From the IMG/VR virus record IMGVR_UViG_3300036766_000359, positions 96,001-160,000 of that record: DNA of 64,000 nt, one strand, 5' to 3'. Made by a program: the position numbers and the translations under genes. Positions 8,362 to 63,334 of the stretch are shown piece after piece. How positions within the stretch are numbered: position 1 is the stretch's first letter; each line of letters starts with the position of its first letter. Below the pieces are notes generated by a model that saw only the letters and a list, made by a program, of their open reading frames with translations, did no database searches and was not told where the DNA came from. This stretch comes from a virus.

Positions 8362-8387
8362 CGTAAATCACCGGGTGTCGTTCGTAT
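8362..8387 (+). promoter_or_regulatory. Phage promoter motif (leaderless type)
   Basis: cgtaaat-N15-gtat; ATG 8395 follows after 7 nt. Confidence 0.7.
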
Positions 8388-8394
8388 ACCCTTC

Positions 8395-8757
8395 ATGACC
8401 ATATATTCTGTCAAGAACGGCCTTCTTGAAATGACCGTTGACGAGTTCAAAGCCTTGAACCTTGTTGACTTACTATGTTCTTATATTCGAAGTAAATCAT
8501 GGCCGAACGCCACCGGGCCTGAGTTACAGTCAATCCACAGGGCGTCAAGAATGTGCTACGAGCTGAAAGTCAACAATTGTCTGACGATGGTGGACCGAAC
8601 AGACGCACAGATTCTGTATGACCTTCCGATCACACTTGATATGAGTTGGCTAAACAGTACGTTGAATAAAGTCATGGTAAATCTTCGAGATACGGGAGAC
8701 GTTTTGACCATGGCAGATCATTTTGCAAAATCTGTTCACTTAACAATGTCTGACTAG
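8395..8757 (+). CDS. Hypothetical protein
   Basis: 120-aa ORF directly after the promoter motif. Confidence 0.7.
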   Translation: MTIYSVKNGLLEMTVDEFKALNLVDLLCSYIRSKSWPNATGPELQSIHRASRMCYELKVNNCLTMVDRTDAQILYDLPITLDMSWLNSTLNKVMVNLRDTGDVLTMADHFAKSVHLTMSD

Positions 8758-8777
8758 TAGTGAATGAGCATCAATCT

Positions 8778-8962
8778 ATGACTCCGAATCAACGTCATTG
8801 TGTAGCCAGGAACCAAAACACTCCTCCCGAAATCTTAACCAAATTATCTGGTGATACGAATCCAGGGTTCGTCAGTTTGTGGCCTCAAATCCCAACACTT
8901 CTCCCGAAACCCTAGTCCAATTTGATGCACTTGAAGCCGCTTATTCGGTGATGGATAGTTAA
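8778..8962 (+). pseudogene. Frameshifted LRV-repeat protein ending in the VMDS tag
   Basis: VARNQNTPPEILTKLSGDTNPG, then -1 frame VRQFVASNPNTSPETL...AYSVMDS*; shift in the GGG run at 8865-8867; paralog of 50203-50400. Confidence 0.75.
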
Positions 8963-8997
8963 AATGCATATTCAGGAAATAATATTAGGGGAGCCAA

Positions 8998-9225
8998 ATG
9001 AACTGGTCTAAACTATTAGAATATTCCGTGCTACTAGAATATTTCATATTATCCATTCCTGGAGTGGCTTTGGTAGCCGCCGGAGCTGCGTTGGGCGGGT
9101 TGAATGCCGCTTTCATTTTTCTGGTTCCGCTATTTGGTATTTATCTTTTAGGTCGAAATCATGGAGCAGAGGCATTGATGAAAGCTATAAAGGCTTCGAT
9201 GAAGGAACCAGTGGACCCGACCTGA
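8998..9225 (+). CDS. Small membrane protein
   Basis: 75 aa with two hydrophobic segments; GGGAG RBS. Confidence 0.65.
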   Translation: MNWSKLLEYSVLLEYFILSIPGVALVAAGAALGGLNAAFIFLVPLFGIYLLGRNHGAEALMKAIKASMKEPVDPT

Positions 9226-9262
9226 TTTATTTTATCATGAACTTGTTGAAAAATCGCAAAGT

Positions 9263-10147
9263 TTAGTGCGAATGTAACGTCTGAATCAGCCACTGGATTA
9301 GTGCAGCGATGGCAGCAATCGCTCCAACCGGGATGGTAATTTTCCTTGTGAGATTCTTCCCAGATTTTTCAGCCTGATTTTGAATTGCCAGAATTGCTCT
9401 GTTAGTAGTTTCCTTCATATGGTTTTCAAAAATCTGTATACGTTTATCATGAATGGTATCCGTCGTAATCAACATGAGAATCTCTGTCGTGTGATTTGAA
9501 AGTTCTCGTATTATTTCATTTTTAAACATATTAATCATTTGAACATTTTCAAGAGCCAGATCGGCAGCCCTGTTTGCCGCCGACAAACAAGATCTCATCT
9601 GAAGTTTTATGTTATCAATTGAGTCACGTGTTTCGGTAATTTCACCCCCGAGTCGGACTACGTGTTCCTCAGTCCAAAATCGAAGATCTGCCATCTTATG
9701 GAACAGATCGTTAAAATTATTTGTTGCTTCCATGGTAGCAGACATGGAGGTATACTCAGGACCCGATTCCGTAGTCGTATTCATATGCCCCATTTTAAAC
9801 CAGTAAAACGGATGATTAGTATCAAACAACTCCGAATACCACCAAATGAGTTTACCGTCCGAATTTTTCCACGGCCATATGAATAATTTGTGAATTTTTC
9901 CTTTTGTCTGGTCGGATATCATATCCCTTACCCAGTCATGGAACTTTTCCGGAATGACGCTAAATATAGTCATTCCTTGTAGTTGTTCGAGTTTGAACCC
10001 ATATGTGTTCAATACGAATTCATTCGCCCACACAATTTCCCCAGAGATGAGATTTACTTCTATAAATCCACGGTCGTTAAGGGACCTTCCATAGTCTCGG
10101 ATAACTTCGATCTCGTTGCTGGTTATTTGCATATGTAAAGACTTCAA
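9263..10147 (-). CDS. PAS-domain protein with coiled coil and C-terminal TM helix
   Basis: GEIVWANEFVLNTYGFKLEQLQGMTIFSVIP...WKNSDGKLIW is PAS-like; hydrophobic C-terminus. Confidence 0.7.
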   Translation of the reverse strand: MKSLHMQITSNEIEVIRDYGRSLNDRGFIEVNLISGEIVWANEFVLNTYGFKLEQLQGMTIFSVIPEKFHDWVRDMISDQTKGKIHKLFIWPWKNSDGKLIWWYSELFDTNHPFYWFKMGHMNTTTESGPEYTSMSATMEATNNFNDLFHKMADLRFWTEEHVVRLGGEITETRDSIDNIKLQMRSCLSAANRAADLALENVQMINMFKNEIIRELSNHTTEILMLITTDTIHDKRIQIFENHMKETTNRAILAIQNQAEKSGKNLTRKITIPVGAIAAIAALIQWLIQTLHSH

Positions 10148-10189
10148 ACCTTGTTACAATGAAGTTGGACAAGGATTTCATTACAACCC

Positions 10190-10549
10190 GTGGTAGGGTA
10201 TGTAATGGTAAACTTTTTACAAGTAGAATGCTCAAAATGCAAAGTGGCAAAATCCTGCCCACATTTCGGGTCTAGTCCACTGCGCATACCTGGGTATATG
10301 CCAGAGTATTGCAAAATCATAGGTGGATATGGGAGGAAACCAGTAGACCCGGCGATTCTCTCGCCGGAAAGTCTTAGTATTTCGACTCCAGGTTCGTGTC
10401 TTACGATCGCTTATATCCCGGTCGTCGACAAAGAGACAGGGCAAATCATAATGAAACTTACAAAAATTTTCGCCCCTCCTGTTCTACATGAGAGGGAAAA
10501 AATTCCGTGGAATATTGAAGAAATGTACCCTAAACCCCACAAGATTTAG
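10190..10549 (+). CDS. Hypothetical Cys-containing protein
   Basis: CSKC..SC..YC motif. Confidence 0.6.
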   Translation: MVGYVMVNFLQVECSKCKVAKSCPHFGSSPLRIPGYMPEYCKIIGGYGRKPVDPAILSPESLSISTPGSCLTIAYIPVVDKETGQIIMKLTKIFAPPVLHEREKIPWNIEEMYPKPHKI

Positions 10550-11022: not shown

Positions 11023-11027
11023 AATGC

Positions 11028-11264: not shown

Positions 11265-11273
11265 TAAATTTCA

Positions 11274-31023: not shown

Positions 31024-31049
31024 CGGAAATTGGTTGGTGGTTGATGTAT
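31024..31049 (+). promoter_or_regulatory. Phage promoter motif (leaderless type)
   Basis: cggaaat-N15-gtat; ATG 31058 follows after 8 nt. Confidence 0.7.
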
Positions 31050-31057: not shown

Positions 31058-32062
31058 ATGCGAAAATTGGTAAGTGTTCAGCGAGTGTTGGCATTGCATC
31101 CGATTCCAACTGCCGATGCAATCGAGCTTTGCCAGATCAATGGCTGGCAGTGTGTAGTCAAGAAGGGCGATTTTCAAATCGGTGATATCGGGGTGTACTT
31201 CGAGATCGACGCGGTACCACCGGATCGTCCGATATTTGATTTTCTGTGGAAGGGACAAGCGAAACGTCCAGGGTCACTTTGCATCCGAACGGTTCGTCTC
31301 CGGGGGGCATTGAGCCAAGGGTTGCTAATGCCCTTGGAGCTGTTCCCCGAGGCTGAATGCACCGTAGAGGGTGCAGATCTCACAGAAATCCTTGGGGTTT
31401 ATAAATATGAGCCACCGCCTCCTGATGGTATGGGCGACTACCGGGGACCTTTTCCAACCCTGATAGTCAAGACTGACGAGGTGCGTATTCAGAGTTTCCC
31501 ACAGCTTATCGATGAACTACGGGGTAAGCCTTACGTAAGCACCCTAAAGTGTGATGGTACCTCTGCGACCTTCTGCATGTGGGAAGGAAGCTTCCATGCC
31601 TGCGGGCGAAACCACTCAATCGCGGATGCCGATAACATTTTCTGGCGAGCCGCACGCCGATATATGCTCCCCGAAATCATGGCACGGTATCCGGATCTGG
31701 CTCTACAAGGTGAAGTGGTAGGCCCCGGAATTCAAAAGAACCATATGGGACTCAAGGGAGTGGAATTTCGTTCCTTTAACCTCTATGACATGCGCAAAGG
31801 CAGGAATCTCGACCATGATGAATGCTTTGCGTTTTACGAGAAGCATGAGATTCCAGCTGCTCCCGTCGTTGAAGAAGGGCAATGCTTCCAACACACGGTC
31901 GAGAGCTTACTCCAACTTGCTGAGGGCCCATACCCCGATACCAAGAACGAACGTGAAGGTATCGTGATCCGGCCTCGCATAGGACAGCATAGTCAGACAC
32001 TCGGGGGACGTTTGTCGTTCAAAGCCATTAGCAACCGTTTTTTGCTCAAGAGTGGGGACTGA
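31058..32062 (+). CDS. ATP-dependent RNA ligase (DRB0094/Rnl2-like)
   Basis: HPIPTADAIE, GWQCVVKKG, KCDGTS, QGEVVGPGIQKN, REGIVIR, FKAISNRFLLK. Confidence 0.92.
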   Translation: MRKLVSVQRVLALHPIPTADAIELCQINGWQCVVKKGDFQIGDIGVYFEIDAVPPDRPIFDFLWKGQAKRPGSLCIRTVRLRGALSQGLLMPLELFPEAECTVEGADLTEILGVYKYEPPPPDGMGDYRGPFPTLIVKTDEVRIQSFPQLIDELRGKPYVSTLKCDGTSATFCMWEGSFHACGRNHSIADADNIFWRAARRYMLPEIMARYPDLALQGEVVGPGIQKNHMGLKGVEFRSFNLYDMRKGRNLDHDECFAFYEKHEIPAAPVVEEGQCFQHTVESLLQLAEGPYPDTKNEREGIVIRPRIGQHSQTLGGRLSFKAISNRFLLKSGD

Positions 32063-32919: not shown

Positions 32920-32956
32920 AGTCCTGAAGTCCTGAAGTTTTTGGAAATCGTTGAAG
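32902..32956 (+). repeat. Degenerate 8-bp tandem repeat plus shared flank
   Basis: gaagtcat gaaatcct gaagtcct gaagtcct gaagtttt tggaaatcgttgaag. Confidence 0.9.
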
Positions 32957-33092
32957 GTCTTCTTGAAATACTATATACTTTTGAAACGGGCCCGCCGCCG
33001 CGTAGTACGAATGAATATTTTCGACGTTCGAATACCCCCCTGTAAACTATGCATGCGCTTTCGTACCCCAGAGGGGTTTATCAATAGATGTA

Positions 33093-33144
33093 CTCCCCTA
33101 TCATACCCTCCCCTATATAGGGGATAGGGTATAGTATAAGGGGA
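33093..33144. other. Imperfect ~50-bp palindrome centred on cccctatatagggg
   Basis: Perfect 14-bp core at 33110-33123 in non-coding DNA at the compositional junction. Confidence 0.75.
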
Positions 33145-33325
33145 TTCCCCCTCCCCATCCCCTTATACCCCTGGTGCCGTGGTATTTCCGGGCCGGGGTC
33201 CCGTCCGGATTTCCGGCTTCGTAAGTCCGGGACCGGCTTTCCGGGTCGTCGGACGGACGGACCGGCTCGAAGGCCGTTCCGGCGAAGAAGCGCCTCCGAA
33301 GCGCCTCCGAAGCGCCGCGTTTGTT

Positions 33326-33351
33326 GTACTTGACGGGTCGGGCGATTTCCA
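33326..33351 (-). promoter_or_regulatory. Phage promoter motif
   Basis: tggaaat-N15-gtac. Confidence 0.55.
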
Positions 33352-33366
33352 CCCGACCCGTCAAGT
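33328..33366. repeat. Perfect 15-bp inverted repeat
   Basis: acttgacgggtcggg-N9-cccgacccgtcaagt. Confidence 0.95.
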
Positions 33367-33367
33367 T

Positions 33368-33393
33368 CGTAGATTTTAAGAGTGGTCCCGTAC
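33368..33393 (+). promoter_or_regulatory. Phage promoter motif
   Basis: cgtagat-N15-gtac. Confidence 0.6.
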
Positions 33394-33572
33394 CACCTTT
33401 TTGCCTTCGCGCCGGATTGCCCGGTTCAGGCGACGTCTCGCGATCTTCGCACACTGTGCGACTTGAGACCGACGACCATCGCGCCGATTTGCGCCTTTCA
33501 TAAAGTTGGCTTCACTCAACTTGCCTGCCAATCCAGCCATCGGACCTCCATGTTGGTTGCTCTCTCACCCAC

Positions 33573-33687
33573 GTCTACTGCAGCAAGTGCGCGATCTTCT
33601 GGAATCTCACACAGGGTTTGCACCCTGGCATATACTATCGTGATGACTATGATAGTCTACTGCAGCAAGTGCGCGATCTTCTGGAAT
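33573..33687. repeat. 33-bp direct repeat x2 (33573-33605, 33655-33687)
   Basis: gtctactgcagcaagtgcgcgatcttctggaat; on the minus strand it reads agaagat-N15-gtag, a promoter variant. Confidence 0.9.
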
Positions 33688-33777: not shown

Positions 33778-33803
33778 GTACGCGAGCAGCGCGACGATCT
33801 CCG
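33778..33803 (-). promoter_or_regulatory. Phage promoter motif
   Basis: cggagat-N15-gtac then GGTGGAGG. Confidence 0.8.
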
Positions 33804-33808
33804 CTTTG

Positions 33809-33982
33809 CGGAAGTCCCCGGCAAAACGCAGTACCACTGTGTGGAGGGGGCCAGTGTTTCACGTGAAACACGTAGATCCGTCGTTCGCCAGAGTACCACT
33901 ATGTGGAGGGGGCCAGTATCTCGCGTCAGATAACCCGCGAGGCGCTGCTGGCGAGTCGGAAATTGTCTGCCACACGCAGTAC
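33809..33982 (+). promoter_or_regulatory. Three tandem phage promoter motifs (33809, 33871, 33957)
   Basis: cggaagt/cgtagat/cggaaat-N15-gtac; the first two are 62 bp apart and followed by gtggagggggccagt. Confidence 0.8.
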
Positions 33983-35361: not shown

Positions 35362-35383
35362 TGCGAACTAGCAGCAAATTCAG
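35358..35383 (-). promoter_or_regulatory. Phage promoter motif (degenerate)
   Basis: ctgaatt-N15-gtac. Confidence 0.45.
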
Positions 35384-35441
35384 CCCACCCAGCCGTATTG
35401 TCGGCGCGAGGTTTCCAATGTGGCACTCATATCAAGTGATA

Positions 35442-36124: not shown

Positions 36125-36150
36125 GTACTTCGTTGATTCACCAATCTGCG
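36125..36150 (-). promoter_or_regulatory. Phage promoter motif (leaderless type)
   Basis: cgcagat-N15-gtac; ATG follows after 7 nt. Confidence 0.75.
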
Positions 36151-36394: not shown

Positions 36395-36494
36395 CTTGTT
36401 TCCTCCATCCGCCCATACGTGGTGAGATCGATAACTTCCGGCCCGCTTGAGCTTTTTAGATAAGTTATCGCAAAGCTCCGCGATCTTCTTTTGT

Positions 36495-36657
36495 CGTAGA
36501 TTTCTAAAAAAGTGCAGTACCGCAAAGTGGAGGGGGCCAGTGCCTTGCAAAGGCTTCGTAAATCCGTCGTTTTGCTGAGTACCACAAAGTGGAGGGGGCC
36601 AGTGCCCTTTCGCAAGGCACCATTGCCAGTTCGGAGATCGGTTGCGTCGACGCGTAC
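36495..36657 (+). promoter_or_regulatory. Three tandem phage promoter motifs (36495, 36557, 36632)
   Basis: cgtagat/cgtaaat/cggagat-N15-gtac; the first two are 62 bp apart and followed by gtggagggggccagtg. Confidence 0.8.
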
Positions 36658-36797
36658 GGGTGGTGTGAGGCGGGACGGGACGCGAGGCAATGATGCAGCG
36701 CAAAACGGTCCGCAGATCACGGCCCTCCGGCAGTACGGAGGGTGGGAGGCGAGGCGGGCAGGCCGAGTTTCTCACAACCCAACCACAGGAGCACATC

Positions 36798-37719: not shown

Positions 37720-37745
37720 AGTAAATCGGTCGGTATGTGGCGTAT
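37720..37745 (+). promoter_or_regulatory. Phage promoter motif
   Basis: agtaaat-N15-gtat. Confidence 0.55.
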
Positions 37746-38432: not shown

Positions 38433-38458
38433 GTACGGCTACGACTGCGCAGTCTACA
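38433..38458 (-). promoter_or_regulatory. Phage promoter motif
   Basis: tgtagac-N15-gtac then GTGGAGG. Confidence 0.8.
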
Positions 38459-38476: not shown

Positions 38477-38887
38477 TCACTTCCAGCCGTTCCTTGTGTG
38501 TTTCATTACCCTCATCCCAGAAGACCCAGCACAGTCACGTGCGTCTCTCTCTGTGTTAAAGAATAGCATGGGAGAGAACCGACTTCCGACGAAGTCTCCC
38601 ATTGCCCACGTTCCCACTCGAGGGTACGCAGTTTGTCCGGGTGGCAGGCTGATGAGCCCGCCGCAATCTTCATCTTCGTCACCCGCGACGGCGGGCATCG
38701 GGTCTGGTGCCTGCGCCTCCGGGTACGGGACGTCCTCTTCTACCTGCGGCAGCGATGGCGGAGGTGGAAGCGAGTTCAGGTTTATGAACCGGGCGGTTGA
38801 ACGCGGTGGGACGTCGGACGTCGGCCTCGCGTCAGAGAACTTCAAACACGCAGGCAATACGATCACTAGAATGAGCAACTTCATCAT
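38477..38887 (-). CDS. Putative lipoprotein
   Basis: MMKLLILVIVLPAC lipobox-like; Pro-rich. Confidence 0.65.
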   Translation of the reverse strand: MMKLLILVIVLPACLKFSDARPTSDVPPRSTARFINLNSLPPPPSLPQVEEDVPYPEAQAPDPMPAVAGDEDEDCGGLISLPPGQTAYPRVGTWAMGDFVGSRFSPMLFFNTERDARDCAGSSGMRVMKHTRNGWK

Positions 38888-39051
38888 TCGCACGTACGGA
38901 GCAAAAGTTCGCATTTCCGCTCCGTACATCCTTCAAACAAGAAGGCAAAACCACATGATGATGTAGAAGACATGATAAAGCCGCGAGGGCGAAACCCATG
39001 CACTTCCTTGTGCATGTCCGAGAACATCGACTTCAATGATTCCAATTTCAT
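38884..39051 (-). CDS. Small protein (SD.HK..HGFRPR motif)
   Basis: GGAGG RBS; MKLESLKSMFSDMHKEVHGFRPRG. Confidence 0.55.
   Translation of the reverse strand: MKLESLKSMFSDMHKEVHGFRPRGFIMSSTSSCGFAFLFEGCTERKCELLLRTCE
38894..38919 (-). promoter_or_regulatory. Phage promoter motif (leaderless type)
   Basis: cggaaat-N15-gtac; ATG follows after 6 nt. Confidence 0.75.
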
Positions 39052-39071: not shown

Positions 39072-39097
39072 GTACGTGTTGCGGATTCAAGTTTCCG
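39072..39097 (-). promoter_or_regulatory. Phage promoter motif
   Basis: cggaaac-N15-gtac then GGTGGAGG. Confidence 0.8.
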
Positions 39098-39369: not shown

Positions 39370-39395
39370 GTACGCGGCGGAGGCTCGGACTTACC
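39370..39395 (-). promoter_or_regulatory. Phage promoter motif
   Basis: ggtaagt-N15-gtac then GGTGGAGG. Confidence 0.75.
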
Positions 39396-39598: not shown

Positions 39599-40411
39599 TC
39601 ATGACTCCATTATCTTCTGCACTTGGGCTACTTTCTGTGATTCTTCGAAGTCTTCGCGGCGCACGAACATGAGAGAGGACTTGTTTCGTTTCAAAAACTT
39701 GACTAGATCATCAAGATCATCAGGATCAATTGACATGCATTCGAGCATGGTATCCGGATTAACGTCGAGCAAGCCTGGCGTTTTAGACAAAAAATCCCGC
39801 AACTTCTCGCGAAATTTTAACGCTTCTTTGTTCGTGTTTATCCCGGAAAACTGACCCACAATCTGATCGGCGTCAAGCAACGATTTTTGCCAAGCTGCCT
39901 TCCATTCTTTGTCGAGATAGTCAAGTCGTTCTGACAACTGCTCATTGAACACACCAGAAATACCTGAGTCGTCTGGGGTTAGACTTGAACTACTAACCCC
40001 ATCAAGCATGTATGAAATACCGTATGATGAGAAAGATAAATAGAGTTGTTGCGGATGTTGCGGATGTGTATGCGTCCATCGGTAGAAAAATTTTTCTCCT
40101 CTCACTTTGAAAAATTTTTCCTCCCAACTGATTTTTCCGTCCAGAACGACGTGTAGACGATTTACTGTGGTGATCAGGTTTTGAGAATAGGGAGAGCAAA
40201 CCTTCAACACACGGGGAGGGCTGATTTTCAGTTTGGAGTTGATAAGAAAGTGCCACGACTGAAGAGTCGCCTGCCTCATTTTCTTAATATACTCTTGCTG
40301 AAGAGCTGCCTGATTGAGCTTTGTTCTGCGATTGTCGGGAGTACACGACTTCTTGAAGGCATCGCTGTCCCGAAGCTTGTCGATTGCGTCTTCGACGAGT
40401 TTATAATCCAT
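39599..40411 (-). CDS. Hypothetical protein with IMES tag
   Basis: ...RREDFEESQKVAQVQKIMES*. Confidence 0.8.
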   Translation of the reverse strand: MDYKLVEDAIDKLRDSDAFKKSCTPDNRRTKLNQAALQQEYIKKMRQATLQSWHFLINSKLKISPPRVLKVCSPYSQNLITTVNRLHVVLDGKISWEEKFFKVRGEKFFYRWTHTHPQHPQQLYLSFSSYGISYMLDGVSSSSLTPDDSGISGVFNEQLSERLDYLDKEWKAAWQKSLLDADQIVGQFSGINTNKEALKFREKLRDFLSKTPGLLDVNPDTMLECMSIDPDDLDDLVKFLKRNKSSLMFVRREDFEESQKVAQVQKIMES

Positions 40412-41072: not shown

Positions 41073-41098
41073 GTACGATCGCAGAACAGGAATTTACA
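41073..41098 (-). promoter_or_regulatory. Phage promoter motif
   Basis: tgtaaat-N15-gtac then GCGGAGG. Confidence 0.8.
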
Positions 41099-41394: not shown

Positions 41395-41520
41395 TTTCTC
41401 CTGACATTGGCGGTTGTCCCGCCAGAGCGCCCATCGATAATACGCGTGACACTCGCTGATCTGCGCTTTGTTGGGATACCTTCAAAAGCCATACAACTGC
41501 ACGGGGGACTCAAGACGGTC

Positions 41521-41546
41521 CGTAGATTCTCGTGCCGACAGCGTAT
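41521..41546 (+). promoter_or_regulatory. Phage promoter motif
   Basis: cgtagat-N15-gtat. Confidence 0.75.
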
Positions 41547-42254: not shown

Positions 42255-42489
42255 GAGACGCTCCTCGGGGTGTTAGTCGGCAATGAATGACCAACTTCCA
42301 TTCATGACGTACTGACACCGTAAACGGGTTTACTTCAGATTTGTAGACCTTCTCGTACAAGCGTTCGGCTAGACGTTGATTCTCAAGCTCGATCATACTC
42401 CATCGATTTACGAGACTCGAGAACGGTCGATACTCTATGGCATCCAATTCGCGCAATAATGCCAGTCCGTTTTTGCTTGGGTGGTACAT
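42223..42489 (-). CDS. Hypothetical protein (winged-helix-like tail)
   Basis: CRLTPRG.SLA. Confidence 0.45.
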   Translation of the reverse strand: MYHPSKNGLALLRELDAIEYRPFSSLVNRWSMIELENQRLAERLYEKVYKSEVNPFTVSVRHEWKLVIHCRLTPRGASLAKETRKEDP

Positions 42490-42936: not shown

Positions 42937-42962
42937 GTACGCCGCGCAGCCGCTGATCTCCG
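42937..42962 (-). promoter_or_regulatory. Phage promoter motif
   Basis: cggagat-N15-gtac then GTGGAGG. Confidence 0.8.
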
Positions 42963-44373: not shown

Positions 44374-44399
44374 GTACTGCGCCACGCCAGCGATTTACG
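44374..44399 (-). promoter_or_regulatory. Phage promoter motif
   Basis: cgtaaat-N15-gtac then GACGGAGG. Confidence 0.8.
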
Positions 44400-44835: not shown

Positions 44836-45213
44836 CTAGCTCGACATGATTGAGTCCGCGATTACCATCCCACAGTTCGGGTTTACCTCGTGCTCAGTCA
44901 TGGCCTCATTCCACGTGGATTCTCGGCTCATCTTCATCTGTCGAAAACACTTCTTGCAGATGGCTTCGACTTCGTCGTCCGCAAAGACGAGGGTAGACTT
45001 CAGTTCCCATTCATGGGTTTCATAACCCTCGGTCTTCGGAGAAGTCTCAGAATTCAGGTCGAGCCCTTTCTCCGCCAGCATGCCGTCAAGAATCGACATG
45101 AAGGGGTCTACGTCAACGTTCTCGGCCGCTTTCCCAATGAGGTGAGAAAGCGGGTCTGCTTCCTCTACAGGCTGCACTTCCGAACCGAGCATTTCATCTA
45201 GTTGGTTCTTCAT
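44836..45213 (-). CDS. HxW-CxxC-C Zn-finger family protein with IMSS tag
   Basis: THEW...CKKC...NCGMVIADSIMSS*. Confidence 0.75.
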   Translation of the reverse strand: MKNQLDEMLGSEVQPVEEADPLSHLIGKAAENVDVDPFMSILDGMLAEKGLDLNSETSPKTEGYETHEWELKSTLVFADDEVEAICKKCFRQMKMSRESTWNEAMTEHEVNPNCGMVIADSIMSS

Positions 45214-45398
45214 CACGACTCCATAATTTTCAGGACCATTTGAGCTTGACAATCTGCCAGAATACCGATCTTGCGATAAAAGCTAGCACCGCGTGGTTTC
45301 ATGGGACCATAATAATGGGTTTTACAATTCTTACATATCCACGCTGCAGTCTTCGCCTGGAAATTGAAATAAACGTACTCCCATTCATGATTCTTCAT
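45213..45398 (-). CDS. HxW-CxxC-C Zn-finger family protein with IMES tag
   Basis: NHEW...CKNC...DCQAQMVLKIMES*. Confidence 0.8.
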   Translation of the reverse strand: MKNHEWEYVYFNFQAKTAAWICKNCKTHYYGPMKPRGASFYRKIGILADCQAQMVLKIMES

Positions 45399-45762: not shown

Positions 45763-45788
45763 GTACCGAGGAGCGAGGCGAATTTACG
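45763..45788 (-). promoter_or_regulatory. Phage promoter motif
   Basis: cgtaaat-N15-gtac. Confidence 0.8.
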
Positions 45789-45796: not shown

Positions 45797-46036
45797 TCAT
45801 CGACGTTTCAGTTGTCTTGACCGACCTTCTTGGGTTAATATACTGGAAAGTCGTTTCATGGCCGATGATAACTCTTCAAAGTCATCATGGTCCATCGAGT
45901 CAATCATTTTCCCGAACATGAGATCTAGCCTATTTTCTGAAATAAGCTTGAGGTTTCTTGCCACATACATGGACCCTCGAATGGCTTCCGGTAAATTTAT
46001 ATCGTTTTGACTCTTCGCCCGTGTAAAATTTGACAT
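45797..46036 (-). CDS. Hypothetical protein
   Basis: GGGGGTG RBS-like. Confidence 0.5.
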   Translation of the reverse strand: MSNFTRAKSQNDINLPEAIRGSMYVARNLKLISENRLDLMFGKMIDSMDHDDFEELSSAMKRLSSILTQEGRSRQLKRR

Positions 46037-46090
46037 ATCACCCCCATAAATTTACTTAAGTTTACAATGAAAAGCCGACACCACGCAAGC

Positions 46091-46116
46091 CGTAAGTTCG
46101 GCGCTGCGCTACGTAC
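46091..46116 (+). promoter_or_regulatory. Phage promoter motif
   Basis: cgtaagt-N15-gtac then GGCGGAGG. Confidence 0.8.
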
Positions 46117-47440: not shown

Positions 47441-47466
47441 CGTAAGTCTGCGAGTTGTCGGCGTAC
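47441..47466 (+). promoter_or_regulatory. Phage promoter motif
   Basis: cgtaagt-N15-gtac. Confidence 0.8.
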
Positions 47467-48874: not shown

Positions 48875-48900
48875 TGGAGATCGGCGGGTTATCGGCGTAC
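48875..48900 (+). promoter_or_regulatory. Phage promoter motif
   Basis: tggagat-N15-gtac. Confidence 0.75.
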
Positions 48901-48901: not shown

Positions 48902-49420
48902 GTGAGTGGACAAATGAGCGTACGCACCCGAAAGATGAAGAAGGAGAAGCTGCGCAAGGTTGCGCACGGTAAGGACTACGAAAGTCTCTTGTCCGTGTTT
49001 TATCGATACAATATGTTTGACTCATGGGAACCGAATCAGTTCATGGAGTTCGTCCGTCTGTATCGCTATTTCCCGTGTGATAGCACAGGCAGCGCGTTCG
49101 TTAGTTCAGTTCAACGCGACCGCGAACAGTTTTGTCTTGATGATGTTTCTGAACGTCTCAAGGCACTGGTTCGTAGCAAGCGCTTTTTAGAAAAGTGTGG
49201 CTATTATTTGCCATTTGGCACCACCAACATCATGTACATCGTTGATTCGTGGAACGTGATGGATCTCATGAAGTTGGTGACTTTCTGTCAAAAAAGCCGT
49301 GATGCTAATTCCGTGTTAGCATTGATCCGTTCGGTACAAATTTTTGGACACAAAATTCGCTTCCAGGAAGTAAAAGCGGCCATGGGTATGATCAAGATTC
49401 AAAAGATCATGGAATCATGA
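48902..49420 (+). CDS. Hypothetical protein with IMES tag
   Basis: ...KIRFQEVKAAMGMIKIQKIMES*. Confidence 0.8.
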   Translation: MSGQMSVRTRKMKKEKLRKVAHGKDYESLLSVFYRYNMFDSWEPNQFMEFVRLYRYFPCDSTGSAFVSSVQRDREQFCLDDVSERLKALVRSKRFLEKCGYYLPFGTTNIMYIVDSWNVMDLMKLVTFCQKSRDANSVLALIRSVQIFGHKIRFQEVKAAMGMIKIQKIMES

Positions 49421-49990: not shown

Positions 49991-50164
49991 GTGAAGCTCT
50001 ATGGCTCAAAGCGCAAGTCTTGTCAGACGTGCAAATATGGGTGCTGCGGATCCAAGGAAGCGAAGCTCCACCGGTTCGCGGGTGCGGGTGCCGTGCGGAA
50101 GGCAGCCCGTCACCGGGCGCGGCGGAAGGCACGGGAGGAAGCGACGCAGGAGGCGACAGAGTGA
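49991..50164 (+). CDS. 57-aa basic Cys peptide
   Basis: My translation from GTG: KLYGSKRKSCQTCKYGCC...RKAARHRARRKAREE; GGAGG RBS. Confidence 0.6.
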   Translation: MKLYGSKRKSCQTCKYGCCGSKEAKLHRFAGAGAVRKAARHRARRKAREEATQEATE

Positions 50165-50202
50165 GCCGGAATCTGGCCATCGACTGGTTCTGGCCAGTCG
50201 AA

Positions 50203-50400
50203 ATGACTAAACTTGAGTCGCGTGATGCCCGTGTGCGTGAGGCACAAGACCCAAATACGCCTGTCAGCGACCTCATACTGTTGTCTAATGATAACGAACC
50301 GGGCATCCGTTGGGCGATATCAGAAAACCCGAGTACCCCTCCAGAAATTAAGGCCTACTTAAAAGCACTTGAAATTGCATACGACGTGATGGAGAGTTAG
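50203..50400 (+). CDS. LRV-repeat protein with VMES tag
   Basis: AQDPNTPVSDLILLSND..PGIRWAISENPSTPPEI...AYDVMES*. Confidence 0.8.
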   Translation: MTKLESRDARVREAQDPNTPVSDLILLSNDNEPGIRWAISENPSTPPEIKAYLKALEIAYDVMES

Positions 50401-50408: not shown

Positions 50409-50434
50409 CGCAAGTGTCGAGTTGTCGCACGTAC
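50409..50434 (+). promoter_or_regulatory. Phage promoter motif
   Basis: cgcaagt-N15-gtac; ATG follows after 9 nt. Confidence 0.75.
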
Positions 50435-51007: not shown

Positions 51008-51033
51008 CGCAGATCCGACGGTCGCGTGCGTAC
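51008..51033 (+). promoter_or_regulatory. Phage promoter motif
   Basis: cgcagat-N15-gtac then GGTGGAGG. Confidence 0.8.
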
Positions 51034-52628: not shown

Positions 52629-52654
52629 AGGAAACTCGGCAGTTGTCGGCGTAC
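52629..52654 (+). promoter_or_regulatory. Phage promoter motif
   Basis: aggaaac-N15-gtac then GGTGGAGG. Confidence 0.8.
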
Positions 52655-53723: not shown

Positions 53724-53749
53724 CGTAGATCCGCGCAGTCTCTCGGTAC
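53724..53749 (+). promoter_or_regulatory. Phage promoter motif
   Basis: cgtagat-N15-gtac. Confidence 0.8.
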
Positions 53750-55631: not shown

Positions 55632-55657
55632 TGTAAGTTCGGATCGAAGCCGCGTAT
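55632..55657 (+). promoter_or_regulatory. Phage promoter motif
   Basis: tgtaagt-N15-gtat then GACGGAGG. Confidence 0.75.
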
Positions 55658-56449: not shown

Positions 56450-56595
56450 AGAAAATGATTCGGTCGAAGCGTAAAGATAAAGCAAAAGAACTGCTGGTTT
56501 CCGCCCTGATCGAAGCGCTGTCCTCTGGTGTTCCACCAGACGAAGTCCTTTCAATAGTAAAAGAGTCACTGGTTTCACAAACTATGGAGTCGTAG
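56446..56595 (+). CDS. 49-aa helical protein with TMES tag
   Basis: My translation, ATGA-coupled: ...KDKAKELL...LSSGVPPDEVLSIVKESLVSQTMES*. Confidence 0.8.
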   Translation: MKKMIRSKRKDKAKELLVSALIEALSSGVPPDEVLSIVKESLVSQTMES

Positions 56596-56616
56596 ACCCG
56601 AACGTCGTGTGCGTAC
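56591..56616 (+). promoter_or_regulatory. Phage promoter motif overlapping the upstream stop
   Basis: cgtagac-N15-gtac then GGCGGAGG. Confidence 0.8.
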
Positions 56617-57259: not shown

Positions 57260-57285
57260 CGGAGATCGGGGCACCGGACGCGTAC
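57260..57285 (+). promoter_or_regulatory. Phage promoter motif
   Basis: cggagat-N15-gtac then GGTGGAGG. Confidence 0.8.
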
Positions 57286-57304: not shown

Positions 57305-58090
57305 ATGAGCAATATGAAGAATCTTTTCAATCTGTTCGACCAGGAACCAAGTTTGGTAGAAATCACCGAGGCACAGAACGCTGTGCTGGAGAAGGATTTC
57401 GAGCGACAGGAGCAACTGCCGCTGGTTGTTGAAGCAGCCCCCGCTGCCATCTTTGCGATGCCCCCGGTCGCCTACATCAAGGCAGGTCGCCGCCACAAGT
57501 TGGTATTCGAGGGAGTTTGCACCAATTGTGCTCACTGCTCACAACCCCTCTCGGACGCCGTGTCGATCGAACGCGGGATCGGACCGGTTTGCTCGAAAAA
57601 GGGATACCTGGAAGATCCCAAGGTGTCGGACGAAATCCAGGCGATGATCGACTTGGCCGAGTTTCCTTCCTTGGTGACTTTCCTCGTCGAGCGGTATAAG
57701 CCGCAGGGCGTCCGTTCGATGATGAATGCCCTGGTGAAGATCTGTTCTCTCAACCGTCGTTCGCCAGTACATCCGGCATGCTGCGATGCCATCGAGTCGC
57801 TCGGATACACCCGACTTGCAAGCACTCTTCGTGAGAGCATCGCGGTCGTGGAAATTTCCGTGCTTTCAGCTTCTGACGACCGACTGAAAGTATGGGTCAA
57901 GAAGAGCGAGTGGAATTGGCGTTGGACGACCGAAATTCGACAGATCCTTGGGGCGGGGTACTCAACGCAACACAAGGGAACCTTAGTTCCAGCTGCCCGG
58001 AAACGGGAGTTGTGGAACCTGATCAAGAAGCATTATGCAGGCCTCTGTTGCAAGACTCCAACCGGAACTGTGAAGATTCCAGCGGTTTAA
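57305..58090 (+). CDS. Protein with DUF6011-like Zn motif and C-terminal HARP-like region
   Basis: CAHCSQPLSDAVSIERGIGPVC; GGAGG RBS. Confidence 0.8.
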   Translation: MSNMKNLFNLFDQEPSLVEITEAQNAVLEKDFERQEQLPLVVEAAPAAIFAMPPVAYIKAGRRHKLVFEGVCTNCAHCSQPLSDAVSIERGIGPVCSKKGYLEDPKVSDEIQAMIDLAEFPSLVTFLVERYKPQGVRSMMNALVKICSLNRRSPVHPACCDAIESLGYTRLASTLRESIAVVEISVLSASDDRLKVWVKKSEWNWRWTTEIRQILGAGYSTQHKGTLVPAARKRELWNLIKKHYAGLCCKTPTGTVKIPAV

Positions 58091-58300: not shown

Positions 58301-58326
58301 CGGAAATTCGGCAGTTGTCGGTGTAC
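58301..58326 (+). promoter_or_regulatory. Phage promoter motif
   Basis: cggaaat-N15-gtac then GGTGGAGG. Confidence 0.8.
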
Positions 58327-59124: not shown

Positions 59125-59147
59125 CTCAAAAGGAAGTGCCGAGCCCG

Positions 59148-59173
59148 TGTAAGTTCTTGTATCGCGCGTGTAT
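59148..59173 (+). promoter_or_regulatory. Phage promoter motif
   Basis: tgtaagt-N15-gtat then GGTGGAGG. Confidence 0.7.
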
Positions 59174-59234: not shown

Positions 59235-59837
59235 ATGACATTAGTTAAAGGTCGTGCATTGGAAGAACTCTTCGCTTTGGCATATGCCAATGCCCCAAAG
59301 AAATCAGCGCTCATCGCAAACGTTGGGAGTTTACCAGGAGTCCTGTGTTCTCACGGGTCTAATGCCTTTGTTGCGGGATTTGCAAAGTGTTACCAGATGA
59401 CCTCTGATGAGCAACTACATATGGTTGAGTTCATATCAGTTGCTACCGAACATTCTTTTCTTCTTCAAGACATTCAACCTTTCCAAAGTGCTCTTGAGGA
59501 CGTAAAGAACAGAACCTACGCACAGGTCCCGACGCCGAGGAAAGTGATGGTCAAAATGGTTCACCAAAGGATGATGAGTTTGCTTAAGGCAGTTCATGGT
59601 CGTAACGAACTATGTGCGCAGTACCCGAATAGTTACAAGAATACCTCTGCAGTTCCAACGCTCTGTTCTAAACAGAGTTTCGTTGACTGGGTGGAACACA
59701 ACAGAAAACAAAACTACAACGATAAAATAGTCATCAACGCTGACATCATCAGCATCCTTACGCGTGATGATATTCTTGACGATGTTTACCTAGAAGCATG
59801 GGATCTCGTTCAGGTTCGAGAAATAATGGAATCGTAA
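59235..59837 (+). CDS. Hypothetical protein with IMES tag
   Basis: AAGGAG RBS; ...AWDLVQVREIMES*. Confidence 0.8.
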   Translation: MTLVKGRALEELFALAYANAPKKSALIANVGSLPGVLCSHGSNAFVAGFAKCYQMTSDEQLHMVEFISVATEHSFLLQDIQPFQSALEDVKNRTYAQVPTPRKVMVKMVHQRMMSLLKAVHGRNELCAQYPNSYKNTSAVPTLCSKQSFVDWVEHNRKQNYNDKIVINADIISILTRDDILDDVYLEAWDLVQVREIMES

Positions 59838-59880
59838 ATCTCGCTCTTGGTGATAACTCCCTGGACAGCAGCTCGAACTG

Positions 59881-59906
59881 CGTAAATTCGCGTGTCGCGT
59901 GCGTAC
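59881..59906 (+). promoter_or_regulatory. Phage promoter motif
   Basis: cgtaaat-N15-gtac then GGAGGTG. Confidence 0.85.
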
Positions 59907-59925
59907 ACGTGATGGAGGTGACGAC

Positions 59926-61278: not shown

Positions 61279-61316
61279 AAATATACACCATATAAACGAA
61301 AATACTGTCAGACATC

Positions 61317-61514
61317 ATGACGAAGACACGTGAAAAGAAGTGGCTGATTGTTTGCGATGACAGTGGTCATCACCGGGCGATGTCAAAGTCATGGCTTGAA
61401 CTGAACGGACTCGGACTCGGCACTTTTCATGTTGTTGATGAAGCTCATCATTATCTAGGAGCATGTAGGCTGGCTGACAAGTTGAATGAAGTATCGAACG
61501 TCATGGGGTCATAG
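61317..61514 (+). CDS. W..V.D..GHH family protein with VMGS tag
   Basis: WLIVCDDSGHHR...ADKLNEVSNVMGS*. Confidence 0.8.
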   Translation: MTKTREKKWLIVCDDSGHHRAMSKSWLELNGLGLGTFHVVDEAHHYLGACRLADKLNEVSNVMGS

Positions 61515-61718
61515 ATGACAAGTCGTAATGATGATTGGTTCGTAGTTGTTGATCCTGTCGGTCATCATCGCCCATGGGGTCCCCCTGAACTCCTTGAGTG
61601 GAACGGGTGCGCCAATATACCAGTCGGGTGGAGTGTGGTTGACAGGGGGGTGTCATTGAAAGAGGCACGCAAGAGGGCTGATGAACTCAATTACGTAGAA
61701 GAAATCATGAAGTCATGA
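61515..61718 (+). CDS. W..V.D..GHH family protein with IMKS tag
   Basis: WFVVVDPVGHHR...ADELNYVEEIMKS*. Confidence 0.8.
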   Translation: MTSRNDDWFVVVDPVGHHRPWGPPELLEWNGCANIPVGWSVVDRGVSLKEARKRADELNYVEEIMKS

Positions 61719-61829
61719 CCAGCACCAAATAAAAACGAGGCCGGTGCTGGTAAGGTATAGTCCCAGTGTACTTTGGGTAGCATGAAATTCGAGTGGTGGG
61801 TTTTAAACACGTCTAGCTAAGAGGAACCA

Positions 61830-62003
61830 ATGAGCAAGCCAGTCAAGAAGTCAACATTCAAGTGGTCGGATAAAGCCAAGCAGGACGCGCTAGGCAAGTT
61901 TGCTCGAGAAGCCGAACGGCTCCTCAACGGTGGACTCTCGCTCGATGACATGAAGAAGGCATGCGATAGTGCTGCTTCGAATTTGTCGGCACCGAAGAGT
62001 TGA
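61830..62003 (+). CDS. 57-aa helical protein (paralog of 61108)
   Basis: My translation: MSKPVKKSTFKWSDKAKQDA...REAERLLNGG; GAGG RBS. Confidence 0.8.
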   Translation: MSKPVKKSTFKWSDKAKQDALGKFAREAERLLNGGLSLDDMKKACDSAASNLSAPKS

Positions 62004-62214
62004 TCTGTGGATGGGTACTATGCCATACATGGCTTTGGTATGGCATAGTATTTGTTCCTCATTCGTAAATCAGGAAAACTCGAACGTATTGATTCTGCAG
62101 GGAACGGTTTACAGCGAGGCAACACCTTTGAAAACCAAAAGGTTGGTGTTGACCCGGTAGGTTTACTAGGCTCGTTTGTAGTGGGTTCGATTCCTTACCC
62201 CTGTGTCAATTTAA

Positions 62215-62427
62215 ATGAAGACTGCAGCAGGCACGGTCGAGATGTACGAAGAACGCATGCCACACAACGAGTGGCGTGTAGTCAGGGACAGCCTAGGCGA
62301 TCACCATGTGATGTCCCGTCCTCCTACTCCTTATGGATGGCATATACTTTTTACCAATCTTTCACACTTGAAGGCAAGCGAAGAGTGCAAAAAACTTAAC
62401 CTCATCAAAGAAGTTATGGAGTCGTGA
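62215..62427 (+). CDS. W..V.D..G.HH family protein with VMES tag
   Basis: WRVVRDSLGDHH...KKLNLIKEVMES*. Confidence 0.8.
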   Translation: MKTAAGTVEMYEERMPHNEWRVVRDSLGDHHVMSRPPTPYGWHILFTNLSHLKASEECKKLNLIKEVMES

Positions 62428-62675
62428 ACGAGGTCAAAGTTGGGGATCGAGTAACCCGTCAAAAATTTCTCGACGACGGCACTTGGCAATGGCGCGGTGA
62501 TGACTGCCTAGACGAAAGCCCGCTTTTGCATGGCGTGGTCACTCGCGTATTCATAGAGTCAAGGACTCGATTCAATAAAAACGCTCGAAAGCTTCTCCCG
62601 ATGTGCGAAGTTTCGTGGTCTGAAACAGGAGAAACTTGGGCTTATTTCTTTCACGGAGTGACACGCGACATGTAA
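62424..62675 (+). CDS. Small SH3-like hypothetical protein
   Basis: VKVGDRV...GVVTRV...CEVSW; GTGA-coupled. Confidence 0.65.
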   Translation: MNEVKVGDRVTRQKFLDDGTWQWRGDDCLDESPLLHGVVTRVFIESRTRFNKNARKLLPMCEVSWSETGETWAYFFHGVTRDM

Positions 62676-62696
62676 ACTCGATCGATGCGTCCGTAC
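62671..62696 (+). promoter_or_regulatory. Phage promoter motif
   Basis: tgtaaac-N15-gtac then GGTGGAGG. Confidence 0.75.
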
Positions 62697-63035
62697 TGGT
62701 GGTGGAGGCAAGAATGGACACAAAGTATCAGAAAATCACGAGATTTGCCAATGACGGTTAGGTGCATCGTGGCGGTTAGATATCTCGTATGCCGACATCC
62801 GGATTTCCCAATCTTTCATGACTCCACAGGACCTCAGTTTGAGATGCGTAGTCTATACGACGATGAAGCTTATTCGCAAGAAATCGACCAAATGGGTAAA
62901 TCAGTAACCGTTTTCAAAAGAAACGGTGTCACAGTTGACACTGCTGGCGAATTTTGCGGAGAATATGCTAACGCGAGAGAAGCGCGTGTCGTCATTGATA
63001 GACTTAATCAAGTTTCCAGGGTCATGGACTCATGA
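62685..63035 (+). CDS. Hypothetical protein with VMDS tag (start uncertain)
   Basis: ...REARVVIDRLNQVSRVMDS*. Confidence 0.7.
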   Translation: MRPYWWWRQEWTQSIRKSRDLPMTVRCIVAVRYLVCRHPDFPIFHDSTGPQFEMRSLYDDEAYSQEIDQMGKSVTVFKRNGVTVDTAGEFCGEYANAREARVVIDRLNQVSRVMDS

Positions 63036-63268
63036 CTTATATCTTCGTACTGGTTCAACTGGTTCAACTGGCGTTGTTGGTATTAGTTTATTGGTCGTTT
63101 AAACGAAGGATTTCTAAAATCGAGATGTCGGTTGTTCGTCAGATAATGGAAGAATCTCCAGAGTTGCCAACCCGAGTTCTTGCAACTTTCGACAAACTCC
63201 GAAGTGGTCAAATCGATCCAGACAAAGCTTTGAAAGAGGCAAGGCGACTTCACGGGCTAGACCCATGA
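63032..63268 (+). CDS. Small membrane-anchored protein
   Basis: N-terminal TM; ATGA-coupled. Confidence 0.7.
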   Translation: MTYIFVLVQLVQLALLVLVYWSFKRRISKIEMSVVRQIMEESPELPTRVLATFDKLRSGQIDPDKALKEARRLHGLDP

Positions 63269-63308
63269 TGGTTGGAAGAACACTCTCGGGTGTAAATTCG
63301 GTGCGGGT

Positions 63309-63334
63309 CGTAAATCTAACGACCGCAGCAGTAC
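63309..63334 (+). promoter_or_regulatory. Phage promoter motif
   Basis: cgtaaat-N15-gtac. Confidence 0.75.

Follow-up and report, generated by a model that had tools for sequence, protein, structure and literature searches.

A probable phage-specific promoter class with a fixed 15-nucleotide spacer in the small-gene block of a huge-phage contig

INTRODUCTION

The late promoters of Salmonella phage 7-11 are read by the host core RNA polymerase (RNAP) together with a phage sigma factor, SaPh711_gp47, which recognizes GTAAtg-N16-aCTA (PMC8948821), and the middle/late promoters of phiEco32 consist of a single element, tAATGTAtA, read by the phage protein gp36 (PMC8948821, PMC12276001). Transcription from the phage-sigma promoters of both phages starts 6 to 9 bp after the downstream element (PMC8948821). 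Sigma genes are also carried by huge phages (PMC7162821), and jumbo phages without an RNAP generally encode sigma factors of the minimal and RpoD-like types (PMC7824862). Here, we describe a bipartite motif, G[TGC]ARRY-N15-GTAY, that recurs in positions 96,001 to 160,000 of the single IMG/VR viral record IMGVR_UViG_3300036766_000359, a contig of 192,972 bp; this 64,000-nucleotide (nt) stretch is referred to below as the window, and genome coordinates are those of the whole contig. Judging from its distribution, spacing, and placement, the motif very probably represents a phage-specific promoter class.

RESULTS

A bipartite motif concentrated in one block

The motif matches the window 49 times, compared with 3.46 matches expected from 100 dinucleotide shuffles (standard deviation, 1.87; maximum, 8), an enrichment of about 14-fold, and 47 of the 49 matches lie at 31.0 to 63.3 kb. 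A reading made from the sequence alone had counted 41 copies by eye, 39 of them at 33.3 to 63.3 kb; the pattern search raises the number and retains the clustering. The genome-wide scan by strand and position that this sequence-only reading proposed returns 58 matches in the entire contig, of which 51 fall within a 38- to 39-kb block at genome 127 to 166 kb, on strands that match those of the genes. When the spacer is varied from 8 to 23 nt, the block contains 51 matches at a spacing of 15 and 0 to 7 at every other length, which bears out the fixed spacing first noted by eye. A position weight matrix applied at a threshold of 14 bits or more recovers 44 hits, versus about 2 in shuffled DNA. 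Two of the pattern matches (window positions 57482 and 62704) look like chance occurrences.

The upstream box reads G-[T/G/C]-A-[A/G]-[A/G]-T, with T in the final position in 76% of sites and C in 22%. Conservation extends to positions that the search pattern did not select: the first G is preceded by C in 67% of sites, the upstream box is followed by C or T, and GTAY (whose GTA is itself fixed by the pattern) is preceded by C in 56%. The weight matrix also contains a G-rich stretch downstream of the motif that ends in GGAGG. The 15-base spacer is not conserved in sequence. Both boxes contain CGTA, at a distance of 21 bp, or two helical turns. A repeat or mobile element was considered as the source of the motif and ruled out, because conservation is limited to the two boxes and the Shine-Dalgarno (SD) sequence. 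No word other than these is enriched in the intergenic DNA of the block.

Placement relative to genes

Many motif copies are closely followed by a ribosome-binding site. GGAG or GAGG begins 3 to 11 nt after GTAY in 29 of the 51 block sites, as opposed to 4.5% of the remaining 467 GTAY sequences there, and an SD, a start codon, and an open reading frame (ORF) of at least 25 amino acids (aa) follow 25 block sites within 30 nt and 32 within 60 nt. The earlier statement that most copies are followed within 4 to 8 nt by GGTGGAGG and ATG is thus true for slightly more than half of them. The SD usually begins 7 to 8 nt after GTAY and the start codon 17 to 21 nt after it, and approximately 18 of the 26 GGAGG-led ORFs of the block (counted by eye) are preceded directly by the motif. 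We refer to a motif and its adjoining SD as a cassette.

The strand of the motif follows the direction of the genes, as claimed from the sequence alone. At genome 142.1 to 160.8 kb, all 19 sites are on the plus strand, like the genes there, and at 134.5 to 142.0 kb, 12 of 13 are on the minus strand, the lone exception preceding a plus-strand gene. At every divergent switch in gene direction, motifs stand back to back with 7 to 61 bp between their upstream boxes (five such pairs here, and four and three in two related genomes introduced below as G003 and G006), and convergent pairs are essentially absent. Junctions with 7 to 20 bp between the boxes leave no room for any other start signal, so that transcription of both gene sets would have to begin at the cassettes.

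Conservation in related phages

The contig is about 45% complete by CheckV, and a search of GenBank phages found no close DNA relatives. Its large terminase is 56 to 64% identical to those of metagenomic phage contigs of approximately 111 to 436 kb, which include complete genomes of 377 and 436 kb; within GenBank, it comes closest to the terminases of an uncultured 485-kb phage (44%) and of Tunturiibacter phage Tunturi_5 (28%). Five complete relatives of 360 to 440 kb were available. In the following, G000 denotes the contig under study, G003 the complete 436-kb relative, and G006 a complete relative of 393 kb.

The exact composite CGTAAAT-N14-CGTAC-N4-9-GGAGG occurs in only seven stretches in all of IMG/VR, three of which are in G003 and one in G006. 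A looser composite that includes the SD was counted per genome, with 0 to 1 hits for a reversed-pattern control, and its hits lie almost exclusively within a single block of each genome, except in G005, where the block emerges with a looser anchor (Table 1). The spacer is strictly 15 nt in G003 (56 copies) and G006 (48 copies), versus 1 to 7 matches at other spacings. The upstream box is also recovered when it is not part of the query: the anchor GTAY-N5-9-GGAG alone returns a cG.AAAT box at positions -22 to -15 in all three genomes tested (G000, G003, and G006).

The cassette is likewise retained upstream of an orthologous gene. As a single query against IMG/VR, the VWA protein gave no match, and its orthologues (49 to 66% identity) were found instead through the genome-level search of relatives. 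The cassette lies directly upstream of this gene in G000, G003, G006, and G012, with unrelated spacers, and in G005 and G009, GTAY-N8-GGAGG is kept and the upstream box is a variant. Most upstream boxes in G005 read GGAGCT at unchanged spacing. Over six genomes, the invariant core is G-N-A-N-N-T-N15-GTAY-N7/8-GGAGG, with drift at neighboring positions, and the full form of the cassette in relatives is c-G-N-A-N-N-T-N15-GTAY-N7/8-GGAGG(TGA)-ATG. Among 185,000 cellular genomes, the composite pattern gave scattered single matches, and no genome stands out among the 120 matches listed. The terminal repeats annotated by IMG/VR are only overlapping contig ends; the location of the G003 block at the genome ends was therefore given no weight as a sign of early entry.

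A subset of cassettes in G003 and G006 contains an additional feature. In 8 of 43 G003 cassettes (e.g., at 403-439, 4483-4519, and 432400-432436), the spacer holds a 9- to 13-nt anti-SD of the TCGTCACCTCCG type that is complementary to the cassette's own SD. Such a sequence would be transcribed only in RNA reading through from upstream and could silence translation of that RNA. It is absent from G000, and pairing of this kind is therefore not part of the core mechanism.

Candidate readers

The sequence-only reading named a phage sigma factor, a phage RNAP, or a hijacked host extracytoplasmic function (ECF) sigma factor as possible readers, and called for a search for sigma and RNAP genes. The contig yielded neither; among the relatives, every complete genome has two or three sigma genes, and no RNAP was detected by Pfam, a combination that favors a phage sigma factor and lends no support to a phage RNAP. 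Models of the two largest multisubunit RNAP subunits (PF00562 and PF00623) had no match in G000, G001, G003, G005, or G006 and were positive in 14 of 14 control genomes; the model of T7-like RNAPs (PF00940) had no match in five genomes, in a search without a positive control. Matches to sigma70-type promoters occur in the block at chance level (18, versus 17.0 and 16.8 expected), and the boxes of the motif differ from the sigma70 consensus, TTGACA-N16-18-TATAAT.

The smaller of the relatives' sigma factors, of about 220 aa, occurs in all five complete relatives and is 50 to 64% identical across the clade. It matches Pfam Sigma70_r2 and, of the Pfam sigma regions, region 2 only. Its sole match among GenBank phages is weak and partial, to the uncultured 485-kb phage, and no sequence homologue was found in cultured phages. 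The best fold matches of its AlphaFold model (mean predicted local distance difference test score, 71.5) are nearly all to sigma factors, among them sigmaH, E. coli sigmaE, sigma28, mycobacterial ECF sigma factors, SigW, and CnrH, as well as to 9m7y_F, a sigma-sized chain of a phiEco32 gp79-dependent RNAP open complex; the E values of these matches are weak, and the region 2 domain fits at a root mean square deviation of approximately 3 A. Ahead of the small sigma gene lie TTGTTA-N17-TATAAT, together with an upstream TG, in G003 and TTGCAC-N17-TAGACT in G006. These near-consensus sigma70 promoters imply that the hosts use canonical TTGACA/TATAAT promoters and suggest a cascade from host sigma70 through the small sigma factor to the cassettes.

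The larger sigma factor is of the sigma70 type, with regions 1.2, 2, 3, and 4, and is a less likely reader of the cassettes. It is approximately 380 to 400 aa long in G003, G006, and G012, which share only 31 to 34% identity in this protein; in G005 and G009, shorter paralogues take its place. The large protein also keeps the region 4.2 residues SRERIRQIE, which in sigma70 make contact with TTGACA-type boxes. The invariant core of the motif fits a conserved reader better than this fast-evolving protein.

Two ORFs of the contig were examined as candidate sigma factors and found no support: for one of 572 aa (genome 93816-95534), Pfam, PHROGs, and hhalign all gave no sigma match, and one of 494 aa (genome 95570-97054) has only a subthreshold region 4 helix-turn-helix (HTH) match (19.6 bits, against a cutoff of 24.1). 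The contig does encode a 257-aa protein with two sigma-region-4-like HTH domains (genome 70374-71147, minus strand) that is 68 to 78% identical in all five complete relatives and thus more conserved than the terminase. This tandem-HTH protein may serve as a transcription factor or in packaging and is an alternative candidate reader of the upstream box.

Other features of the block

On the contig, structural and large genes extend along the minus strand from 0 to 97 kb, followed by a mixed middle part that includes genes for ribonucleotide reductase, a helicase-nuclease, and similar proteins. The small-gene block (approximately 127 to 166 kb) encodes an RNA ligase, a MoxR-like ATPase, a DUF2201/VWA protein, and an ATP-dependent DNA ligase, and has a G+C content of 50 to 55%, versus about 42% in the rest of the contig. 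GGAGG-led ORFs number 26 in the 39-kb block and 13 in the remaining 154 kb; many genes outside the block have no recognizable SD, and strong GGAGG(TGA) sites are a habit of the block genes. No tRNAs were found in the window and no Rfam families in the block.

Several cassettes do not lead directly into an ORF. Two tandem pairs (window 33810-33896 and 36496-36582), with cassettes 62 bp apart, are each followed by gtggagggggccagtg and have no clear ORF of their own, and four cassettes (33958, 36633, 36712, and 41522) are followed by G-rich leaders of 60 to 67 nt before three paralogous genes of approximately 120 to 150 aa. Both arrangements may specify small RNAs or regulated leaders.

At its left edge (window 32950-33600), the block has about 500 bp of noncoding DNA with CCCCTATATAGGGG-type palindromes, GGGGA/TATAC repeats, and two copies of the direct repeat GCGCCTCCGAA; similar GGGGA/TATAC-rich sequence is found at block edges in G006 (approximately 324.8 kb) and G005 (approximately 259.9 kb). 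This stretch may be an origin, a packaging site, or a terminal site. The central divergent junction (window 45990-46090, about 100 bp) holds an inverted repeat, GGTAAATTTATA...TATAAATTTACC, and two TTGAC(T/A) boxes. Outside the block, the words GTAAATT and TAAATTT are enriched in intergenic DNA, with 8 occurrences there versus 16 in coding DNA that is approximately 18 times longer.

A common C-terminal ending, (V/I)-M-(E/D)-S or variants such as IHES and VTNS, is found in about 30 small block proteins that are not otherwise related (window 35418-63035 and beyond); examples are encoded at 39599-40105 and 45213-45398 on the minus strand and at 48935-49420, 50161-50400, and 59235-59837 on the plus strand. 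Codon use varies synonymously, placing this tag at the protein level, and because many tagged genes adjoin the next gene directly, the tag is independent of the promoter motif.

Table 1. Motif copies, the small-gene block, and composite hits in related genomes. Positions are those of the window unless marked as genome; +n, number of nucleotides after GTAY; bits, position weight matrix score; two dots stand for the 15-base spacer.
Feature	Position	Strand	Bits	Remarks
Promoter-dense small-gene block	33042-64000	.		runs on past window end to ~164.6 kb (genome); strong GGAGG ribosome sites; 51/58 motif copies
GTAAAT..GTAT	8363-8387	+	17.2	outlying copy; 8 nt to ATG of 120-aa ORF, without GGAGG
GGAAAT..GTAT	31025-31049	+		45 nt upstream of RNA ligase gene (31094-32062)
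GTAAAC..GTAC	33042-33066	+		noncoding left block edge
GGAAAT..GTAT	33165-33189	-		noncoding left block edge
GGAAAT..GTAC	33326-33350	-		divergent with 33369, 18 bp between upstream boxes
GTAGAT..GTAC	33369-33393	+		divergent with 33326
GGAGAT..GTAC	33778-33802	-	23.7	GGAGG +7, ATG +19; divergent with 33810, 7 bp apart
GGAAGT..GTAC	33810-33834	+		tandem pair, member 1; then gtggagggggccagtg
GTAGAT..GTAC	33872-33896	+	22.2	tandem pair, member 2
GGAAAT..GTAC	33958-33982	+		G-rich leader ~67 nt, then 151-aa ORF (three-copy gene, copy 1)
GCAAAT..GTAT	35374-35398	+	13.5	weaker; ATG +19 (71 aa)
GCAGAT..GTAC	36125-36149	-	18.2	
GGAAGT..GTAT	36415-36439	-		GGAGG +8, ATG +20 (58 aa); divergent with 36496
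GTAGAT..GTAC	36496-36520	+		second tandem pair, member 1
GTAAAT..GTAC	36558-36582	+	22.0	second tandem pair, member 2
GGAGAT..GTAC	36633-36657	+	21.3	then G-rich leader
GCAGAT..GTAC	36712-36736	+		leader ~61 nt, then three-copy gene, copy 2
GTAAAT..GTAT	37721-37745	+	19.3	ATG +24 (52 aa)
GTAGAC..GTAC	38433-38457	-		GGAGG +8, ATG +21 (89 aa)
GCAGGT..GTAC	38723-38747	-	13.5	weaker
GGAAAT..GTAC	38894-38918	-	20.3	
GGAAAC..GTAC	39072-39096	-		GGAGG +8, ATG +20
GTAAGT..GTAC	39370-39394	-	21.3	GGAGG +7, ATG +18 (72 aa)
GTAAAT..GTAC	41073-41097	-		GGAGG +7
GCAGAT..GTAT	41440-41464	-		divergent with 41522
GTAGAT..GTAT	41522-41546	+	20.7	leader ~65 nt, then three-copy gene, copy 3
GTAAAC..GTAC	42309-42333	-	13.7	weaker
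GGAGAT..GTAC	42937-42961	-	24.2	GGAGG +6, ATG +20 (107 aa)
GTAAAT..GTAC	44374-44398	-	24.7	GGAGG +7, ATG +21
GTAAAT..GTAC	45763-45787	-	20.3	ATG +21
GGAAGC..GTAT	45965-45989	-	13.9	weak; central divergent junction
GTAAGT..GTAC	46092-46116	+	23.6	GGAGG +7, ATG +21 (218 aa); first rightward unit
GTAAGT..GTAC	47442-47466	+	24.1	42-nt leader with hairpin, then MoxR-like AAA ATPase gene
GGAGAT..GTAC	48876-48900	+	22.6	ATG +13
GCAAGT..GTAC	50410-50434	+	14.2	weaker
GCAGAT..GTAC	51009-51033	+	25.5	GGAGG +7, ATG +21; before DUF2201/VWA gene
GGAAAC..GTAC	52630-52654	+		GGAGG +7, ATG +17
GTAGAT..GTAC	53725-53749	+	20.7	AAGGAG and ATG downstream
GTAAGT..GTAT	55633-55657	+		GGAGG +7, ATG +21 (256 aa)
GTAGAC..GTAC	56592-56616	+		GGAGG +8 (206-207 aa)
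GGAGAT..GTAC	57261-57285	+		GGAGG +7, ATG +19 (261 aa)
GGAAAT..GTAC	58302-58326	+	24.3	GGAGG +7, ATG +18 (102 aa)
GTAAGT..GTAT	59149-59173	+		GGAGG +5
GTAAAT..GTAC	59882-59906	+	25.7	GGAGG +7, ATG +19; before ATP-dependent DNA ligase gene
GTAAAT..GTAT	62065-62089	+	13.6	weaker
GTAAAC..GTAC	62672-62696	+		GGAGG +7
GTAAAT..GTAC	63310-63334	+	19.0	near 5' end of 282-aa ORF as called; true start may be downstream
Looser composite, G000	genome 129.7-160.8 kb			21 hits, all in this range
Looser composite, G003	genome 430-436 and 0-45 kb			46 hits
Looser composite, G006	genome 325-355 kb			27 hits, 24 in this range
Looser composite, G012	genome 175-226 kb			20 hits
Looser composite, G009	genome 288-315 and 33 kb			6 hits, five in the first range and one at 33 kb
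Looser composite, G005				4 hits, unclustered; 230-260 kb block emerges with looser anchor

DISCUSSION

The promoter reading of the motif is well supported by its enrichment, strict spacing, orientation, and divergent pairs, together with its conservation, which covers five complete relatives as well as the DNA preceding an orthologous gene. The same evidence upholds the earlier proposal of a dedicated class that is not of the sigma70 type. In the mechanism that we favor, the upstream box, c-G-[T/G/C]-A-[A/G]-[A/G]-T, would serve as a -35-like element and the downstream box, c-GTA-[C/T], as a -10-like element, across a 15-base spacer that is fixed in length and free in sequence. A phage-encoded sigma factor would direct the host core RNAP to the cassettes, and the likeliest such factor is the conserved, ECF-sized protein of about 220 aa, whose gene would be expected on the missing half of the contig. 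Host sigma70 would transcribe the small sigma gene, and its product would then bring core RNAP to more than 40 cassette promoters driving short units, which include small accessory genes, the RNA ligase, the MoxR/VWA pair, and the DNA ligase. We lean toward this view of the cassettes as a class of promoters that depend on a phage sigma factor and are read through the small one.

Each promoter would be joined at 7 to 8 nt to a strong GGAGG(TGA) site. If transcription starts 6 to 9 nt after the -10-like box, as it does at the known phage-sigma promoters, initiation is predicted at the SD or no more than 1 to 2 nt from it, on the first one or two G's of GGAGG, giving leaders of approximately 12 to 15 nt that begin with the SD. 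The constancy of the 7- to 8-nt distance from GTAY to GGAGG across all genomes is consistent with selection on the geometry of the start. The time of expression is probably delayed-early or middle, since sigma70-type promoters are no more frequent in the block than expected by chance and the relatives' candidate sigma gene has a promoter of that type, unless the factor is injected with the DNA. The label "early" given to this class by the sequence-only reading was not borne out.

Several observations weigh against this account. Sigma70_r2 has no match in the contig (about 45% complete) even at an E value of 10, and the relatives' sigma factors have none by tblastn, so that the link to a sigma factor rests on the relatives. 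Because all complete relatives carry the small sigma factor, other sigma factors, and the tandem-HTH protein, co-occurrence cannot single out the reader. The C-terminal helix of the small sigma factor is nearly invariant while the upstream box drifts (to GGAGCT in G005). A start at the SD would mean unusually short leaders. Lastly, the motif departs from ECF (group 4) promoters, such as those of B. subtilis SigW (TGAAAC-N16-CGTA) and E. coli SigE (GGAACTT-N16-GTC): its -35-like box ends in T and not in the C of AAC, and 14 bp separate GTAAAT(C/T) from GTA, 2 bp fewer than in the SigE and SigW promoters aligned alike and short of the 16 to 17 bp of the ECF class. The shorter spacer had been correctly noted from the sequence alone.

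Among the alternatives, a composite promoter resembling the middle promoters of T4 (sigma appropriation) is unlikely, although several features recommend it. Here, a phage activator would bind the upstream box and a host or phage sigma factor would read GTAY only. The tandem-HTH protein, encoded in the contig and at least 68% identical in all five complete relatives, would be a suitable activator; the shared CGTA of the two boxes, two helical turns apart, and the invariance of G-N-A-N-N-T across genomes while its neighbors drift are as expected of such a site. The gene for this protein, however, lies in the structural-gene region; a role for the protein in packaging or in late regulation is just as likely. 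GTAY does not fit the sigma70 -10 element TAnnnT, position 27 being T in only 12% of sites. A more far-reaching version of the phage-sigma account, for which we see little probability, holds that the cassettes form the regulon of a new, clade-specific sigma family with SD-initiated mRNAs and leaders of approximately 12 nt, its reader perhaps delivered in the virion and the 38-kb block serving host takeover without a host sigma factor.

Exploitation of a host alternative (ECF-type) sigma factor by the phage is improbable. The A-rich -35 box and CGT-containing -10 box are ECF-like and the contig lacks a sigma gene, but anti-sigma factors normally keep ECF sigma factors inactive, the spacer falls 2 bp short of the ECF norm, all complete relatives encode sigma factors of their own, and matches to the composite in unrelated cellular genomes are scattered and single, with none standing out among those listed. 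We assign a similarly low probability to a phage RNAP that has escaped recognition, either packaged in the virion or expressed early, which would make the cassettes a true immediate-early class. In its favor, sigma70-type promoters in the block are at chance level, many large proteins of the clade have no detectable family, and Pfam models miss divergent phage RNAPs, for example those of phiKZ and N4. Against it, PF00562 and PF00623 have no match in three complete relatives, and PF00940 had none either in the search without a positive control; a bipartite signal with an unconserved spacer is typical of sigma factors and not of single-subunit or phiKZ-type polymerases; and jumbo phages without an RNAP typically carry sigma factors (PMC7824862).

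It is very improbable that the motif is an RNA-level signal, acting in processing or as a translational operator, or a repressor operator lying inside long transcripts, as its fixed position next to the SD and the anti-SD in the spacer of 8 of 43 G003 cassettes might suggest, given that motif sites show no RNA folding signal (mean z, +0.43; no site below -2), that a spacer of strict length and free sequence is in keeping with recognition of double-stranded DNA, that divergent pairs 7 to 20 bp apart leave no other place to start, and that the intergenic regions hold no other conserved element.

Transcription maps are lacking for huge phages known solely from metagenomes, and a conserved, readily recognized phage-specific promoter cassette would give a handle on their temporal gene classes. 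It would mark a coregulated block of at least 40 units, mostly small uncharacterized genes, in at least six genomes, and the drift of the promoter box from GTAAAT to GGAGCT can be traced across a phage clade. If the assignment to the small sigma factor is true, the two would form an orthogonal sigma-promoter pair with a compact expression cassette of 55 nt.

Comparison with known systems

Promoters read by phage sigma factors are a known strategy, which is probably at work here in a new version. The closest published case is phage 7-11, whose promoters are read by a small divergent phage sigma factor. Shared with 7-11 are the bipartite structure, the GTAA-type upstream box, the fixed spacer, the short downstream box, and a phage-specific consensus unlike that of sigma70. 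The differences are a spacer of 15 rather than 16, a downstream box of GTAY rather than CTA, approximately 45 to 50 copies in a block of accessory genes as opposed to 8 before late genes, the joining of the promoter to an SD at a fixed distance, and a candidate sigma factor for which no homologue was found in cultured phages. The GTAT-type -10-like core resembles that of phiEco32, which is read by an ECF-like phage sigma factor on host core RNAP, but the promoters of phiEco32 lack a -35 box and consist of one element. With both systems, the cassettes share a non-host consensus, a specific orientation, and a position upstream of phage genes.

The motif also resembles ECF promoters in its A-rich -35 box, its CGT/GTA -10 core, and its rigid spacer, and the candidate sigma factor of the relatives would be a two-domain protein of ECF size, although it matches Pfam region 2 only. 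ECF promoters start approximately 10 nt after the T of CGT. The motif would work like an ECF-type promoter, yet it should not be classed as one. It does not resemble the promoters of single-subunit, T7-like RNAPs, which are continuous over about 20 bp, as its spacer is unconserved, nor T4 MotA-type middle promoters, which combine an activator box near -30 with a -10 element TAnnnT that is lacking here (12% of sites have a T at the final-T position). Large phages have promoter-dense host-takeover or early regions with sigmaA or sigma70 promoters, for example the terminal-repeat module of SPO1 and the early promoter cassettes of T4. Like these regions, the block described here gathers many small uncharacterized genes, nearly each with its own strong promoter, as predicted, and ribosome site; unlike them, it is not enriched in sigma70-type promoters, and its signal is specific to the phage.

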